From positions 20,691-84,690 of the forward strand of contig CACGRD010000001.1 in NCBI GenBank assembly GCA_902575375.1: a DNA stretch of 64,000 bases, in the 5' to 3' direction. Positions 36,350-43,223 of the stretch are shown here, one piece after another; the first letter of the stretch is position 1, and every line of letters begins with the position of its first letter. The DNA is from an uncultured Alphaproteobacteria bacterium. GTDB lineage: Bacteria; Pseudomonadota; Alphaproteobacteria; HIMB59; GCA-002718135. A program made the position numbers and the translations under genes. The notes below the pieces were generated by a model. The model had not been told where the DNA came from, did no database searches, and saw only the letters and a program-made list of their open reading frames with translations.

Positions 36350-39091
36350 ATGAATAAAAAGAGTAGATTGATACTAGTTGATGGATCAGCATACATTTTT
36401 AGAGCTTATTATGGTCTGCCTCCTATGAATCGCGCTGACGGAACCCCTATAAATGCTGTTTTTGGGTTTACTAATATGCTTGTAAAACTCATAGAAGATT
36501 ACAGTAATGACAAAATGATTGTAATTTTTGATGCTGCTAGAGAAAATTTCAGAAATAAAATTTATCCTGAATATAAAGCTAACAGAGGTGAAGCACCAGA
36601 TGATCTTATTCCTCAATTTCCACTAATCAGAGAGTGTGTAAAAAGTTTTAATATTCCTCAATTAGAAATAGAAGGATTTGAAGCTGATGATTTAATTGCT
36701 ACCTATGTTAAGTTGGCTGAAAAAGATGAAATTGAGACTATCATAGTTTCCTCAGATAAAGATTTAATGCAACTTGTTAGTAATAAAGTCACAATGCTTG
36801 ATCCAATGAAAAATAAAAAAATTGAAATAAAAGATGTTGAGGAAAAATTTGGTGTTAAACCTAATAAAGTTATTTTTATCCAAGCTTTAACAGGCGACAA
36901 AGTAGATAATATTCCGGGCGCTCCTGGAATTGGTCCAAAAACAGCTTCTCAGTTAATAAATGAATTTAAAGATATTGATGGTTTAATTAAAAATCTTGAT
37001 AAAATTAAACAAGAAAAAAGAAGAAATATTTTAGCAGAATCAGAAAATGACATTAGATTAAGTTTAAAACTTGTAACACTTAAAAACGATGTCCAAATAA
37101 CTGAGACCATTAATAGAATTAGAACTTATAATGAATTAAAAAATGAAAATAATAATATCTTTAATTTTCTTAAAGAGCAGGGCTTTAGATCAACATCTGA
37201 AAGATTAAAATCTAATTCTTTTATATCTAGTGATAATGATAATATAGTTCCAAAAAAAGAAATAAAACCAAAATATCAATTAATTAATTCAAAGAATCAT
37301 TTTGAAAAAGTTTTAAGTGAAATTAAAAAAAATGGTATTTGCGCTATAGATACTGAAACTAATTCACTCGATATAGAAAAAGCTAAATTAGTTGGTATAT
37401 CAATTTGTAGCAGTGAAAATATTTCTTATTATATTCCTATAAACCATACCAGTTTAGATGGTTCTAAAAAAATTGATAACCAGTTAGAGGAAAAATTTGT
37501 AATTAATCATATTAACAAAATATGTGAAAATGAATCTATCTTAAAAATTGGGCAAAATATAAAATATGATATTAGAATTTTAAATAAGTATGGAGTAATT
37601 TTTAATTCAATTGCAGATACAATGTTAATTTCCTATTCAATTGATAATGGAATTTTTAAACATAATTTAGATGATCTATCATTTAATCACTTAAATCATA
37701 CTACAATTAAGTATAAGGAAGTTGTTGGAACAGGGAAAAATGAAATTACTTTCGATAAAGTAACTATTGATAAAGCAATTAATTATGCTGCAGAAGATTC
37801 TCTATTAACATTCAGGCTTTTTCATCATCTTTACCCTCGTTTAATAAAAGAAAAGGCTAATTTTGTTTATCAAAATATTGATTTACCTCTTGTAGAGGTA
37901 TTATCTTCAATCGAGGCAAATGGTATTGAGGTAAATAAAGATTTTTTAACAAGCCTTAGTAATGAATTTGAGAATGAAAGTAAAAAACTTGAAAAGAATA
38001 TTTATAAACTTTCAAAAGAAGAGTTTAATATTGGCTCGCCTAAACAATTAGGAGAGATATTATTCGTTAATCTTAAAATACCTGGTGGTAAAAAAACAAA
38101 ATCAGGAACATATTCTACTGATTCATCAACTTTAAATAATTTAGCCTTAGATGGATTTGAAATTGCACAACTCGTTCTTGATTGGAGAGAATTAACAAAA
38201 CTTAAATCAACTTATACAGATGCTTTATTTAGATTAACAGATGATAAAAGTAGAGTTCATACATCATTTGGTTTAGCTAATACTTTAACAGGTCGATTAA
38301 GTTCTACAGACCCAAATCTTCAAAATATCCCAATTAGAACAGAAAATGGAAAAAAAATAAGAACAGCTTTTGTTAGTGGAAAAGGAAAAAAATTAGTCAG
38401 TTTTGATTATTCTCAAATAGAGCTTAGATTAGCCGCAGAAATTTCTAGTGATAAAAATTTTATTAAAGCTTTTAAAAACAATGAAGATATTCATGCATCA
38501 ACTGCTAAAGAAATATTTAATTTAAACGATAGTCAAATAAATAACGATTATAGAAGAAAAGCAAAAGCAATTAATTTTGGTATTTTATATGGAATTAGTC
38601 CATATGGTTTAGCTAAACAACTTGATATTTCCAATACAGAAGCAAAAGATTATATAAATGAGTATTTTATTAAATACCCAAAAATTAAAAAATATATGGA
38701 GCATCAAATTGATTTCGCAAAAACAAATCAATACGTTGAAACAATTTTTAAAAGGAAAATTAATATTAAGGGAATTGCCGATAAGAATTTTGCTGTTAGA
38801 GGTTTTGCAGAAAGACAAGCCATTAATGCACCAATCCAAGGTAGTGCAGCAGACATTATAAAGTTAGCAATGATAGAAATTCATAAGGAAATAAAACTTA
38901 AAAATATTGAGGCTGAAATGCTTTTACAAGTACATGATGAACTAATCTTTGAAGTCGAAACTAAAAAATATGACAATTTAGTAAGTAATGTAAAAAAGAT
39001 TATGGAGTCTGTACATTTAAAATACAAAGATTTTTCAGTTCCACTCACTGTTGATTTCGGTGCTGGTAATCATTGGGGACAGGCACATTAG
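36350..39091 (+). CDS. polA: DNA polymerase I
   Basis: 5'-exonuclease VDGS..FRAY/EADD, 3'-exonuclease DTET, polymerase DYSQIELR, KAINFGILYG, LQVHDEL. Confidence 0.99.
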   Translation: MNKKSRLILVDGSAYIFRAYYGLPPMNRADGTPINAVFGFTNMLVKLIEDYSNDKMIVIFDAARENFRNKIYPEYKANRGEAPDDLIPQFPLIRECVKSFNIPQLEIEGFEADDLIATYVKLAEKDEIETIIVSSDKDLMQLVSNKVTMLDPMKNKKIEIKDVEEKFGVKPNKVIFIQALTGDKVDNIPGAPGIGPKTASQLINEFKDIDGLIKNLDKIKQEKRRNILAESENDIRLSLKLVTLKNDVQITETINRIRTYNELKNENNNIFNFLKEQGFRSTSERLKSNSFISSDNDNIVPKKEIKPKYQLINSKNHFEKVLSEIKKNGICAIDTETNSLDIEKAKLVGISICSSENISYYIPINHTSLDGSKKIDNQLEEKFVINHINKICENESILKIGQNIKYDIRILNKYGVIFNSIADTMLISYSIDNGIFKHNLDDLSFNHLNHTTIKYKEVVGTGKNEITFDKVTIDKAINYAAEDSLLTFRLFHHLYPRLIKEKANFVYQNIDLPLVEVLSSIEANGIEVNKDFLTSLSNEFENESKKLEKNIYKLSKEEFNIGSPKQLGEILFVNLKIPGGKKTKSGTYSTDSSTLNNLALDGFEIAQLVLDWRELTKLKSTYTDALFRLTDDKSRVHTSFGLANTLTGRLSSTDPNLQNIPIRTENGKKIRTAFVSGKGKKLVSFDYSQIELRLAAEISSDKNFIKAFKNNEDIHASTAKEIFNLNDSQINNDYRRKAKAINFGILYGISPYGLAKQLDISNTEAKDYINEYFIKYPKIKKYMEHQIDFAKTNQYVETIFKRKINIKGIADKNFAVRGFAERQAINAPIQGSAADIIKLAMIEIHKEIKLKNIEAEMLLQVHDELIFEVETKKYDNLVSNVKKIMESVHLKYKDFSVPLTVDFGAGNHWGQAH

Positions 39092-39101
39092 AATACATTT
39101 T

Positions 39102-39230
39102 ATGGAAATAAAAAAAAAAATTAAGAAAAGAAATCCCTTTGCTCAAGATTTAAAACTACCTAAGTACAAACAAAGAATTGTTAGAAATAAGAAAACTTAC
39201 TCAAGAAAAGGAAAAAAAAAGGTTATTTAG
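39102..39230 (+). CDS. Small basic ArfA-like protein (42 aa; missing from ORF track)
   Basis: Manual translation MEIKKKIKKRNPFAQDLKLPKYKQRIVRNKKTYSRKGKKKVI*; fills the polA-grx gap; N..A..L..P.Y.QR...NKK..Y.RKGK pattern resembles the ArfA core. Confidence 0.7.
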   Translation: MEIKKKIKKRNPFAQDLKLPKYKQRIVRNKKTYSRKGKKKVI

Positions 39231-39466
39231 AATTCTTCATCAAAGGTATTCATTTCAAACCATTTTTCAAGTTCATGATACCCTCCAATTTTTTCACCAT
39301 TTAAAATTATTTGAGGAAAAGTTTTAGCGTTCGGAAACTTTTCAAAAAAATCTTCTCTCGTATAATCTGTATCAAGCATATAAATCTTTGGATTAAATTT
39401 AGCTAACCGTAGTTTAGCTCTATCACAGTATCCACAATTAGTTTTAGAGTATATCTCTGCTTCCAT
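39227..39466 (-). CDS. Dithiol glutaredoxin associated with RNR
   Basis: CGYC, TFPQI, IGGY; ATG 39466 in TGATG overlap with the nrdB stop (track uses TTG 39469). Confidence 0.9.
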   Translation of the reverse strand: MEAEIYSKTNCGYCDRAKLRLAKFNPKIYMLDTDYTREDFFEKFPNAKTFPQIILNGEKIGGYHELEKWFEMNTFDEEF

Positions 39467-40455
39467 CAAAATGCTTCATCAAAACTTAAAGCTCTATCTG
39501 TAGGTCGTTGATATTCAGATACCCTTTTTTCAAAAAAGTTAGTAACATTTTGTACATCTAAAGCTCTCATAAAATCAAAAGGATTTTCTGTTTTAAAGAC
39601 TCTGTCAAATTCAAATAGGTCAGCAATTCTGTCTGCAACAGCTTCAATATATTGACACATTAAGTCTTGATTCATACCAATTAAATCTACTGGTAAAGCA
39701 TCTCTTACAAATTCTTTTTCGAATGCTACTGCTTCTCTAACAATTTCTTCAAATTGTGATTGAGGCACATCTGAGGGTATCAAAGACAAATCACTAATAT
39801 CTGCATCAGTTAATGTTTTATTATTAAATTTATCTCTTAAAGTTCTAAACATAAGAGATGAGAAACTAAAATGCATTCCTTCGTCTCTTGCAATCCAGTC
39901 GTTAGATAAGGCTAAACCAGGTAATAACCCTCTTTTTCTGAAATAATATATTGCACAGAAAGAGCCAGCAAAAAATAAACCTTCAACTAATCCAAATCCT
40001 ATTAGTCTTGTTAATAAATTTTGACTACCATTGAGCCATTTTGATACCCATTGTGCTTTATGGTTAATACATGGTACGTTTTGTATTGCATCAAAAAGCA
40101 TGTCTTTTTCTTTTGCATCTTTTACATAAGCTTCAATTTGTAGACCATACATCTCTGCATGAATTGATTCATTCAACATTTGTATAGATATAAAACATCT
40201 TGCTTCAGGAATTAAAATTTCTTTGTAGAACCTACTTGCTAAGTTTTCATTAATCATTGCTTCGGAGTTAGCAAAATATGCAAGTACGTGCTTAATAAAA
40301 TGCTTTTCACCATCATTTAAAGTTTCAAGATCTCTTAAATCATCTTGCAAAGATACTTCTTCAGTTGTCCAAAAGGCTTGTATATGTTGTTTGTATCTAT
40401 CCCAAATTTCTTGGTTTTTTATTGGAAATATTGATTTAACTCCTTTTGATATCAT
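39466..40455 (-). CDS. nrdB: Class I ribonucleotide reductase beta subunit (eukaryote-like, first ligand Glu)
   Basis: FWT, ESIHAEMY, VEGLFF, RDEGMH, NFFEKRVSEY, terminal F. Confidence 0.96.
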   Translation of the reverse strand: MISKGVKSIFPIKNQEIWDRYKQHIQAFWTTEEVSLQDDLRDLETLNDGEKHFIKHVLAYFANSEAMINENLASRFYKEILIPEARCFISIQMLNESIHAEMYGLQIEAYVKDAKEKDMLFDAIQNVPCINHKAQWVSKWLNGSQNLLTRLIGFGLVEGLFFAGSFCAIYYFRKRGLLPGLALSNDWIARDEGMHFSFSSLMFRTLRDKFNNKTLTDADISDLSLIPSDVPQSQFEEIVREAVAFEKEFVRDALPVDLIGMNQDLMCQYIEAVADRIADLFEFDRVFKTENPFDFMRALDVQNVTNFFEKRVSEYQRPTDRALSFDEAF

Positions 40456-40469
40456 TCTTTACTCCTTCT

Positions 40470-43223
40470 TTATGCACTGCAAGTTTCGCAATCTTCTGGT
40501 TCATTGTTTTGTTTAATAGCAGTATTTATATAAGCATCTTTTGCTGCTTTTTCTGATGAAACTGTAACTTTTACAGCATCAACTGCTGATCTACTTCTGA
40601 GATAATACATTCCTGTTTTAAGACCTTTTTTCCAAGCATACATATGCATTGAATTAACTTTCCCAAATGTAGGCGTTGAAAGCCAAAGATTCATTGATTG
40701 GGTTTGATCAATAAATGGTGCTCTATCTGCTGACATATCTATGACAGTTTTTTGTGATACTTCCCAAACTGTTTTATAAACTTCTTTAAGTTCAGTTGGA
40801 ATTTCATTTATGTTTTCAACAGACCCATTTTCTAAAATTATTTTGTCTCTCATATCTTTATTCCACAGTCCTCTTTGAGAAAGTTCATTCACCAAATATC
40901 TATTTACAAGAAGGAACTCACCTGAGAGCGTTTGTCTTTTATATATATTAGAGGTTTGTATTTGGAATGTTTCAGTGTTACCTAATATAATGCCTGTTGA
41001 CGCAGTTGGCATACAAGCTGTGGTTAAAGAGTTTCTCACACCGTGCTCTTTAATTTTAGTTCTTAGCGAATCCCAATCCCATTTTGAAGACGGGTTAACA
41101 TTCCACAGATCAAATTGAAATTTACCTTCCGAAATTGGTGAATTTTTAAATGTTTCGTATGTTCCCTTTTCTTTTGCTAATTCACATGAAGCTTCTAAAG
41201 CTCCAAAGTAAATTGTTTCAAAAATTAATTTATTTATTTCTTTAGCCTCTTCAGAGTCATAAGCTATTCCTAACTTGAAGTAGACATCTGCAAGACCCTG
41301 TATTCCTAAACCTATTGGTCTGTGTTTATTATTAGATCTTTCCGTTTTATCAGTTGGATAAAAATTAATATCAATTACTTCATCTAAGTTTTTTGTGGCC
41401 AATTTTGCTGTTTCATAAAGAGCATCATAGTCATATATTAATTTTTTATCTGATTTTTTTACAAATTTTGGCAGAGCTATAGAAGCCAAGTTACATACAG
41501 ATGTCTCGTTCTTATCAGAGTATTCAACTATTTCTGCACACAGGTTTGAAGATTTAATAACACCAATATTTTTTTGGTTGGACTTGTTATTGATTGAGTC
41601 CTTATAGAGCATATAAGGCTGTCCTGTTTCTATCTGCGCTTCTATAATTTTAGACATTAGATCTCTTGCTTTAATTTTTTCTAAATGCTTCATTTCATTT
41701 TCATACTTAGTGTAAAGTTTTTCAAACTCGTCACCATATACATCTGAAAGACCCGGACATTCATGTTCACTCATAAGTGTCCATTCTTCATCATTTTCTA
41801 CTCTTTTCATGAATAAATCAGGTATCCATAAAGCATAAAACAAATCTCTCGCTCTAAATTCTTCGGCACCCGTATTTTTTCTAAGTTCTAGAAATTTCTC
41901 AATGTCAGCATGCCAAGGTTCTAAGTAAACTGCGAAAGAACCTTTTCTTTTTCCTCCACCTTGATCAACTGATTTAGCAGTTTCATTAAAAATTTTAAGA
42001 AATGGAATAAGACCATTAGATTTACCATTTGTTGATTTTATTCTACTTCCGCTTCCTCTAATGTTGTGAGCATGCATTCCGATACCGCCAGCAGTTTTTG
42101 ATATTAGCGCACAATCTTTGATAGTATTAAAAATACCTTCAATAGAATCATCTTCCATACCTATTAAAAAGCATGATGATAATTGCTGCATCTTTAATCC
42201 ACTATTAAACAATGTTGGAGTAGCATGTGTATACATACCACTAGATAGACTTTTATAGGTTTCTTTTATTTTATCTAAATTAAACTCGTTGCCTGTAACT
42301 GTTAAAGTTACTCTCATCCATAGGTCCTGAGGTCTTTCAATTGTTCTATTATCAAACTTTAACAAATAAGCTCTAATTAGTGTTGTAAGGGCAAAATAAT
42401 CAAATGTATAATCTTTGTCATAATCAATTATTGATTCTATTGCGCCAGCATTTTCCATCACTTTTTTAAAATACTCTTCTCTTAATAAACCATCATCGTA
42501 TAAATTTTTTGTTGCTATTATAAAACCTGGGGTTTCTTTATGTAATGAATTAACTTTTATTCTTGCGGCAAGATATGAATAATCAGGATGCTCTACTGTT
42601 AAAGCTGCTGCAGTTTCAGCAAGATAAGTGTCAATTTCAACAGAACTAATATCACTATACAATCCTGGAACTGCTTTTTGAACAACGACAATTGGATCAA
42701 TATTTAATCCAGTTGATAGAACTGAGACTCTGTTGGTTATTTTATCCAGTGAAATCGGCTCTTTACTTCCATCTCTTTTAGTTACCATCATTGAAGAAGC
42801 TTTTTCTCCAACTTGCTCTTTGAGTTTTTTAGTGTGATATCTAGAAGCTGCTCTTTGTTCTCTATATAGGACATATGCTCTAGCAACTTTATGATGCTCA
42901 TCTCTCATAAGTGCTAATTCCACTTGATCTTGTATATCTTCAATGTGAATCATGTCACCATCAGCAATCCTTCTTGTTAGAGCCGAGACAACTTTATGTG
43001 TTAAAGCTTCAACAGTTTTATGAATTCCATCTTGTTGTTCTTTTTCTTTATTTTTGTCATTTCTAATTTTTGTTTGTGCTAAGAATGCTTTTTTTATAGC
43101 ATTTGAAATTTTATCTGATTTGAAGGGAGTGATAGCTCCATCACGACGTACCACACTTAATGTTAAAATATTTACACTTTTTTCTTCCGGGATTTTTGCC
43201 GATACCTGTAGAATGTCTGCCAT
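40470..43223 (-). CDS. nrdA: Class I ribonucleotide reductase alpha subunit with two ATP cones
   Basis: ATPTLFNSG, LSSCF, SNLCAEI, VCNLAS, GMYYLR, C-terminal CETC; cones start VVRRDG and VTKRDG. Confidence 0.97.
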   Translation of the reverse strand: MADILQVSAKIPEEKSVNILTLSVVRRDGAITPFKSDKISNAIKKAFLAQTKIRNDKNKEKEQQDGIHKTVEALTHKVVSALTRRIADGDMIHIEDIQDQVELALMRDEHHKVARAYVLYREQRAASRYHTKKLKEQVGEKASSMMVTKRDGSKEPISLDKITNRVSVLSTGLNIDPIVVVQKAVPGLYSDISSVEIDTYLAETAAALTVEHPDYSYLAARIKVNSLHKETPGFIIATKNLYDDGLLREEYFKKVMENAGAIESIIDYDKDYTFDYFALTTLIRAYLLKFDNRTIERPQDLWMRVTLTVTGNEFNLDKIKETYKSLSSGMYTHATPTLFNSGLKMQQLSSCFLIGMEDDSIEGIFNTIKDCALISKTAGGIGMHAHNIRGSGSRIKSTNGKSNGLIPFLKIFNETAKSVDQGGGKRKGSFAVYLEPWHADIEKFLELRKNTGAEEFRARDLFYALWIPDLFMKRVENDEEWTLMSEHECPGLSDVYGDEFEKLYTKYENEMKHLEKIKARDLMSKIIEAQIETGQPYMLYKDSINNKSNQKNIGVIKSSNLCAEIVEYSDKNETSVCNLASIALPKFVKKSDKKLIYDYDALYETAKLATKNLDEVIDINFYPTDKTERSNNKHRPIGLGIQGLADVYFKLGIAYDSEEAKEINKLIFETIYFGALEASCELAKEKGTYETFKNSPISEGKFQFDLWNVNPSSKWDWDSLRTKIKEHGVRNSLTTACMPTASTGIILGNTETFQIQTSNIYKRQTLSGEFLLVNRYLVNELSQRGLWNKDMRDKIILENGSVENINEIPTELKEVYKTVWEVSQKTVIDMSADRAPFIDQTQSMNLWLSTPTFGKVNSMHMYAWKKGLKTGMYYLRSRSAVDAVKVTVSSEKAAKDAYINTAIKQNNEPEDCETCSA

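Follow-up and report, generated by a model that had tools for sequence, protein, structure and literature searches.

A candidate GKG-less, stop-codon-terminated relative of ArfA, chromosomal behind polA in HIMB59-type Alphaproteobacteria and widespread in phages as DUF7230

The ribosome-rescue peptide ArfA of E. coli is produced only from truncated, non-stop messenger RNA (mRNA). Its hydrophobic minidomain is described as comprising Ile11, Ala18, Leu19 and Leu24, with Leu19 and Leu24 supplying two of the three contacts to Trp319 of release factor 2 (RF2), and the A18T mutation is reported to inactivate the peptide (PMC5378476). The KGKGS residues are reported to help ArfA and to be individually non-essential (PMC6299226). 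ArfA is presented in one review as confined to some beta- and gammaproteobacteria (PMC8012679), and Table 1 of a survey of 15,259 genomes gives arfA in 0 of 2,376 Alphaproteobacteria (PMC11633108). Genes assigned to Pfam ArfA have been described in phages, namely gp30 of pelagiphage HTVC027P (PMC12753301) and g10 of Citromicrobium phage RXM (PMC8953757). Two other small basic peptides through which a release factor can work on non-stop ribosomes are ArfT and BrfA. ArfT is stated to recruit release factor 1 (RF1) or RF2, to have its own stop codon and not to be regulated like ArfA (PMC6299226), and both ArfT and BrfA are treated as independent inventions (PMC6299226, PMC8012679). Here we describe a 42-codon gene behind polA in an uncultured HIMB59-type alphaproteobacterium (GCA_902575375.1, contig CACGRD010000001.1). 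The whole stretch analysed, 64,000 nucleotides (nt) long, is referred to as the window, and window coordinates are used throughout. Sequence comparisons support the view that the gene encodes a mini-ArfA that lacks GKG and terminates at its own stop codon, and that such peptides are chromosomal in HIMB59-type bacteria and widespread in phages as DUF7230.

The original prediction, made from the letters of the window, placed an open reading frame (ORF) for 42 amino acids (aa) 10 nt behind the polA stop, and both its coordinates and its translation proved exact. The locus is arranged as follows.

39102..39230, + strand: gene for a GKG-less ArfA-superfamily peptide, 42 codons from ATG to TAG (from sequence, conservation, selection ratios and profile homology)
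36350..39091, + strand: polA, 913 aa, the upstream gene and positional anchor (Pfam DNA_pol_A)
39092..39101, + strand: spacer of 10 nt between the polA TAG and the ATG (from sequence)
39227..39469, - strand: convergent glutaredoxin gene (grx; PF00462), first in a string of grx, ribonucleotide reductase (RNR) small subunit and RNR large subunit genes (Pfam)

The G+C content of the window is 27.6%, and many spurious ORFs of ~42 codons lie close by. Since chance ORFs of this size are common in such DNA, the ORF by itself means little; it is raised above chance by its conservation, its codon-position bias and its homology to protein profiles. To count the gene in genomes we used a merged family profile (A3) with a match threshold of E<=1e-4. 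Of the 79 genomes sampled from the same family, 60 had exactly one match each, and a profile of the GKG-less peptides (A1, see below) gave the same picture. Matches were present in 53 of 69 genomes of the window's own genus and in 7 of 10 from six other genera together. The sister family yielded a match in a single genome out of 71, and that genome has 4% contamination. The named relatives are assemblies from single cells and metagenomes that carry the labels uncultured Alphaproteobacteria, HIMB59 or MarineAlpha5.

The position and the reading frame of the ORF are conserved as well. Among the first 20 loci compared (19 relatives and the window genome), 17 have an ORF of 42 aa. In 15 of the 16 loci that were parsed, 10 nt separate the ORF from the polA stop, and in the other one 8 nt. 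The remaining three of the 20 loci have an extended frame (discussed below). Outside the genus, the ORF stands behind a long same-strand ORF with a polA-like C-terminus in 10 of 13 divergent loci, the tails being judged by eye and not by family search. The ratio of nonsynonymous to synonymous polymorphism (pN/pS), which is descriptive here and not a formal test because the compared sequences are kin, was 0.19 in the ORF frame and 0.40-1.70 in the five other frames in pairwise comparisons of the 20 loci; the last 100 codons of polA gave 0.10 for the same loci. With 45 distinct sequences from 86 loci, pN/pS was 0.25 (codon bootstrap 0.16-0.39) in the frame and 0.44-1.08 elsewhere, and variable sites at codon positions 1, 2 and 3 numbered 13, 7 and 22. 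The two checks proposed with the original prediction, dN/dS and polA-linked synteny in relatives, therefore came out in its favour (pN/pS 0.19-0.25; behind polA in relatives). In four genomes that lack the gene, three from the sister family and one from another genus of the same family, the polA stop abuts the grx stop. This clean absence indicates that the gene is a discrete, dispensable insert at a fixed site. Collectively, these results establish the ORF as a genuine single-copy gene under purifying selection, located behind polA in most genera of one HIMB59-type family.

One own-genus genome (L092; G124:C22) carries a second, divergent type of the peptide (NNPIAKLLKNPLWKMRVVMSKKIYNRKK..., A3 E 2.7e-7) at another locus and has it instead of the polA-linked copy.

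The predicted 42-aa product contains 14 Lys, 4 Arg, 1 Asp and 1 Glu (net charge +16, isoelectric point 11.0, 5.2 kDa). To determine its relationship to ArfA, we went through intermediate sequences. A word-indexed protein search returned 66 relatives, mostly of 42 aa. One of these, the protein P0064, shares its first 27 residues with the window peptide and ends in KPKKGKGSFKRKK, which is the KGKGSF form, and it scores 29.4 bits with Pfam ArfA (PF03889, gathering cut-off 25.5 bits). A search with P0064 returned 1,731 proteins, including a large group of marine peptides of 35-44 aa with precomputed PF03889 matches, some of which are named ArfA by the Joint Genome Institute. We then compared an alignment of 35 GKG-less peptides (A1) with one of 37 short peptides listed with a precomputed PF03889 match (A2). 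The two were aligned by hhalign at 97.7% (E 1.4e-12), with a 3-column gap at GKG. When 177,635 PDB sequences were searched, the A2 profile found E. coli ArfA at E 4e-6, and the best six of the seven matches of the A1 profile at E<=10 were E. coli ArfA (E 0.13-0.67), again gapped at GKG. The single peptide searched against the PDB with phmmer gave chance matches only (TnsC, CagT).

The alignment made by HMMER pairs P20, Y22, Q24, R25 and I26 of the peptide with Pro23, Phe25, Gln27, Arg28 and Val29 of E. coli ArfA. The region of ArfA that lies in the ribosomal A site (E. coli His21-Glu30) is therefore represented in the peptide; within the family, Y22 never varies, at least 90% of the sequences have P20 and Q24, and R25 and I26 are the consensus. 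The E. coli core given in the original prediction agrees with PDB chain 5mgp_w, and the alignment proposed there, with its missing GKG, is the one that HMMER itself produces with a 3-residue gap. The bridging motifs KGKAS, KGTGS, KGVAS and KGKRS occur among the top library representatives. These profile comparisons make the peptide a homologue of the short ArfAs, which in turn connect it to E. coli ArfA. The nearest clusters in Protein Atlas, which serve as leads only, included DUF7230 (0.92), ArfA (0.91) and Phage_L5_Gp78 (0.92), and it is possible that the PF26884 cluster (Mycobacterium phage L5 gp78) is a further branch of the superfamily.

Similar basic peptides had been predicted to occur in marine phages, and they were found in marine and other phages. 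The window peptide matches phrog_20887 (E 3e-5, 24.9 bits; residues 8-37 on profile positions 2-31 of 46) in PHROGs, which has no curated cut-off, and one of the type members of that family, gp276 of Sinorhizobium phage phiM19, scores 113 bits. With DUF7230 (PF23876), its only Pfam hit, the peptide scores 8.1 bits (E 3.9), which is below the gathering cut-off of 27, and an ORF in Acinetobacter phage 133 (L045:310-420) scores 48.8 bits. A scan of IMG/VR gave at least 325 confirmed relatives, and KGKGS was present in 0 of the best 80. An alignment of 37 of these viral relatives (A4) matched A1 at 99.3% (E 4e-20, 40 ungapped columns) and A2 at 98.5%; its only matches in the PDB were six, all of them ArfA, and 21 of the 37 match DUF7230 at E<=0.01. 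With a merged profile, 1,252 of 1.84 billion cluster representatives matched at E<=0.001. A tblastn search of isolated phages with a canonical short ArfA (P0072) gave no match, for which the low-complexity filter is the presumed cause. In the library of papers that was searched, none mentions DUF7230. Because its closest relatives are GKG-less phage peptides, we assign the window gene to a GKG-less branch of the ArfA superfamily that Pfam has partly filed as DUF7230.

In a tree of 54 peptides (44 columns), the canonical forms make up one clade (100/92) and the own-genus copies another (95/99), and the copies from hosts of other genera fall together with two viral contigs (97/87). Since 33 of the 51 inner branches are unresolved, the direction of transfer between phage and host cannot be read from this tree.

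Several individual sequences in this set are unusual. The Acinetobacter phage 133 ORF and L044:307-432 in Roseobacter phage CRP-13 are both unannotated and overlap annotated hypothetical coding sequences in another frame. In P0067 (70 aa, on a 2.5-kb metagenome contig), a canonical KGKGSF ArfA repeat is fused head to tail with a GKG-less one, whose sequence is almost the same as that of the polA-linked copies in other genera. The best viral relative, L171:3010-3144 from IMG/VR (73% identity), lies in another frame within an ORF of 507 aa that matches a tail-fibre PHROG, and may be an overlapping gene or the product of a mis-joined contig. In the IMG/VR contig L173, the peptide gene is ~2 kb from genes for the RNR small subunit and deoxycytidine monophosphate (dCMP) deaminase, which echoes the RNR neighbourhood of the window.

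To place the peptide in the rescue systems of its hosts, we searched their genomes for the known components. An alpha-type two-piece transfer-messenger RNA (tmRNA) and SmpB were present in all five genomes searched (the window genome and four relatives at least 90% complete); this tmRNA type and the names of the relatives, Alphaproteobacteria and HIMB59, agree with the alphaproteobacterial host of the original prediction. ArfB was not found: each of 52 genomes of the order, 51 of them at 85% completeness or more together with the window genome, has at most two genes with an RF-1 domain (PF00472), RF1 and RF2. The five Pelagibacterales genomes examined that carry the canonical short form likewise have at most two such genes. 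According to Table 1 of the genome survey, arfB is present in 2,022 of 2,376 Alphaproteobacteria (PMC11633108). The peptide itself contains no RF-1 domain with GGQ and so does not belong to ArfB. The RF2 of the window genome aligns with E. coli RF2 at E 1e-103 and has the SPF motif; it keeps Trp319 and Phe217 and has Ile at the position of Val198, the three residues being named as ArfA contacts in PMC5378476.

The upstream polA product carries both 5'-3' exonuclease domains and the 3'-5' exonuclease domain in addition to Pfam DNA_pol_A. At its other end the small gene, whose TAG occupies 39228-39230, shares 4 nt with the stop of the convergent glutaredoxin gene. The flanks are polA and the grx-RNR genes, with no phage genes among the neighbours; the class I RNR large subunit gene (40470-43223, - strand) encodes two ATP-cone stretches. 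Inspection of the 10-nt spacer revealed no purine run of the Shine-Dalgarno type, and no promoter-like site was found on the + strand ahead of the ORF (3 in the region in total, 4.5 expected). Given the short spacer and the lack of a promoter-like site, the small gene is presumably co-transcribed with polA, and it is probably translated with it. The region has no Rfam match at E<=1, no terminator-like site and no fold signal (RNA fold z-score -0.07). The arrangement for non-stop expression known from E. coli ArfA, a hairpin or RNase III site together with an unstable hydrophobic C-terminus, is not found in the window gene. As originally predicted, the frame stops right after the basic core: it has its own TAG and neither a hydrophobic tail nor a terminator-like site or stable hairpin.

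The reality of the gene and its homology to ArfA are supported by these comparisons, and from them we infer its activity, its partner and its regulation. The reading that we favour, with moderate confidence, is that the peptide is a back-up ribosome-rescue factor of the ArfA superfamily, constitutively encoded and dependent on a release factor. In such a mechanism, the peptide would bind ribosomes with an empty mRNA channel. Its Lys/Arg-rich C-terminal half (KK-TY-RKGKKK) would occupy that channel, and the A site would hold the conserved middle, P-x-Y-K-Q-R-I; it is at this site that ArfA pairs with the RF2 domain 2 beta-sheet. Recruitment of a class-I release factor, in all likelihood RF2, would follow, and the peptidyl-tRNA would be hydrolysed without a stop codon, so that the peptide would back up trans-translation. 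Unlike E. coli ArfA, it would be made whenever the polA mRNA is translated, which is probable since it ends at a stop codon of its own and contains no internal hairpin or terminator.

Several observations weigh against this reading. The first set concerns the homology. Pfam ArfA does not match the peptide at E<=10, nor any of 7 close relatives. It finds nothing in the window genome, and in 0 of 151 genomes of the order does it exceed the cut-off, the sub-threshold hits being noise inside long ORFs. The claim that the peptide is ArfA-like by profile thus stood by way of the intermediates (97.7%, E 1.4e-12; six best PDB matches ArfA) and did not hold for Pfam ArfA itself. An NCBIfam scan of the peptide likewise finds nothing, and it also misses the canonical short ArfAs. 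The KGKGS motif is absent; the peptide has RNKK-TYSRKGKKK, with a 3-residue gap at GKG in every alignment. Ala18, Leu19 and Leu24 of E. coli are replaced by Gln15, Asp16 and Lys21, so the N-terminal minidomain is not preserved. Of the minidomain positions, only those of Leu20 (L17), Ile16 (F13) and Phe25 (Y22) are kept, and the first ~10 residues of the ArfA N-terminal minidomain have no counterpart. Because of these replacements and the missing N-terminus, activation of RF2 cannot work exactly as in E. coli, and on this alignment the contact with the RF2 switch loop must differ from that of E. coli ArfA. In the canonical KGKGS short peptides that pass Pfam ArfA, the positions of Leu19 and Leu24 are likewise occupied by Asp and Lys, and these replacements are therefore typical of all short ArfAs and not of the GKG-less branch alone. 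By profile, the nearest relatives of the window peptide are phage peptides of unknown function (DUF7230, phrog_20887).

A second set concerns the distribution. The peptide gene was not found in 70 of the 71 sister-family genomes, a family that likewise lacks ArfB. Since the sister family manages without both, a simple story in which the peptide fills the gap left by ArfB is weakened. In addition, at least three genomes from the window's own genus have an intact polA-grx junction without the gene.

The third set concerns the two homopolymer runs within the gene and the RNA data that cover them.

39110..39120, + strand: run of 11 A in codons 3-7 (K-K-K), a slippage-prone homopolymer (from sequence)
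39212..39220, + strand: run of 9 A in codons 37-40 (G-K-K-K; from sequence)

In 37 same-genus loci, the first run is 10 long in 25, 11 in 11 and 9 in 1, and all of them are in frame. The second is 9 long in 28, 8 in 3 and 7 in 1, and its pattern was unmatched in the remaining 5. With one A fewer in this second run, the frame continues antisense to the glutaredoxin gene. Of the 20 first loci, three (L013, L017 and L018) have such extended frames, of 66-100 aa, and others occur among metagenome proteins (P0006 with 40 members, P0051, P0065 and P0066), with a frame range of 66-124 codons. The extended frame may represent either noise from assembly or a long form that occurs naturally and has a hydrophobic tail. 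At least 45% of the words sampled from the 1-kb stretch around the ORF are contained in 14 seawater metatranscriptome runs. Contigs from four of those runs, from four studies, span the ORF; two bridge polA and the ORF, and two continue through the glutaredoxin gene. The contigs of three of the four runs are one A short in the first run, which would break the frame if real; the peptide frame would then be in phase with polA behind its TAG and would lose its ATG. This deletion could be strain variation, homopolymer error or transcriptional slippage. Contigs from RNA libraries carry no information on strand, level or translation, and the libraries may contain DNA; the contigs are therefore a hint of expression only.

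A bolder version of the same idea, which we regard as a tentative possibility, is that the GKG-less peptides of DUF7230, of several PHROGs and of the window gene are a distinct class of minimal rescue factors spread by phages, where they would free ribosomes stalled on host mRNAs cut during infection or by defence nucleases. The polA-linked copy would then have been domesticated in one lineage of streamlined marine bacteria as the only protein back-up to tmRNA. Having charged residues at the Leu19 and Leu24 positions and a shorter tail for the channel, the peptides would engage the release factor differently from E. coli ArfA, possibly RF1 as well as RF2, and an ordinary gene with its own stop codon would supply them constitutively.

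The foremost rival explanation, rather unlikely in our view, is that the peptide binds the empty mRNA channel without recruiting a release factor, acting as a silencing or hibernation factor or as a phage-type ribosome modulator adopted by the host. This would account for the change of the RF2-gripping residues Leu19 and Leu24, and of Ala18 (roles as described in PMC5378476), to Asp, Lys and Gln, and would suit a peptide whose nearest relatives are phage peptides of unknown function. However, conservation in the family is highest in the A-site middle (P, Y, Q, R, I/V), the segment pairing with the beta-sheet of RF2. Asp and Lys are also found in the canonical KGKGS peptides that pass Pfam ArfA, and the RF2 of the window genome keeps the residues that contact ArfA.

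It is improbable that the gene is a captured phage gene that persists without a host function, as a neutral passenger or selfish remnant. The abundance of the family on viral contigs (at least 325 stretches, the best 80 all GKG-less) and its presence in isolated phages point in this direction, as do the grouping of the host versions of other genera with two viral contigs (97/87) and the patchy presence inside the window's own genus. Such a passenger would nevertheless have to be reconciled with a single copy at the same site behind polA in at least seven genera, with a pN/pS of 0.19-0.25 and with the absence of other phage genes close by, the flanks being polA and grx-RNR. It would also have persisted in a streamlined genome, and genomes without the gene have no more than a few bases left at the junction. 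A non-coding explanation, in which the spacer is conserved as a 3' untranslated region or terminator of polA or grx, is very improbable: the ORF is short, AT-rich and without a Shine-Dalgarno-like sequence, homopolymer runs shift its frame in some assemblies and RNA contigs have a 1-nt deletion, but the third-position bias and low pN/pS occur in the ORF frame only, there is no Rfam match, terminator-like site or fold (z-score -0.07), and searches with the protein profile give significant matches in other taxa as well as in phages.

If the peptide is a rescue factor of the ArfA superfamily, then an unannotated gene of this superfamily, invisible to Pfam ArfA and NCBIfam, resides in abundant, streamlined marine Alphaproteobacteria in which ArfB was not detected. 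Our literature search found nothing on a chromosomal or GKG-less form, including in SAR11 and other alphaproteobacteria; the supplementary tables of the cited surveys lay outside this search. The homology would also provide a functional lead for DUF7230 and for several PHROGs with a wide distribution in phages. With 35-42 residues, the peptides described here are smaller than any other ArfA-like peptide encountered in this analysis, and the natural forms with and without GKG offer a ready test of what KGKGS and the N-terminal minidomain contribute.

Among known systems, E. coli ArfA (YhdL; PF03889; structures 5MGP, 5MDV, 5U4I, 5H5U and 7OJ0) is likewise a small basic peptide. The core shared with it comprises N11, L17, P20, Y22 (Phe25), Q24, R25, I26, K30, K31, Y33, R35, K36, G37 and K38, and the C-terminal half is Lys/Arg-rich like the part of ArfA described as lying in the mRNA channel (PMC5378476). 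The window peptide differs from E. coli ArfA in lacking GKG, in ending at its own stop after the core with no hydrophobic tail, hairpin or non-stop regulation, and in its alphaproteobacterial host. Closer in size are the short canonical ArfAs of SAR11 (35-40 aa; for example in the cultured strains HIMB114, HIMB1517 and HIMB109), which share the pattern KKRNP.A.DL..PKYK.RIV followed by a basic tail, likewise terminate at a stop of their own directly behind the core and also occur in hosts without ArfB. In contrast to the window branch with its RNKK-TYSRKGKKK, the short ArfAs of SAR11 and phages keep KPKKGKGSF and a precomputed Pfam ArfA match. In Pelagibacterales, the KGKGSF form lies at a different locus, where it overlaps the end of another gene (16 of the 19 lowest-ranked loci). 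The closest systems by profile are DUF7230 and phrog_20887, phrog_2701 and phrog_6310 (phiM19 gp276; the Acinetobacter phage 133 ORF), which are also GKG-less. These peptides are phage-borne and their C-termini are often longer and less basic, whereas the window gene is chromosomal and sits at a fixed site. The analogy to ArfT (Francisella, 40 aa) and BrfA (Bacillus) is drawn from function only.

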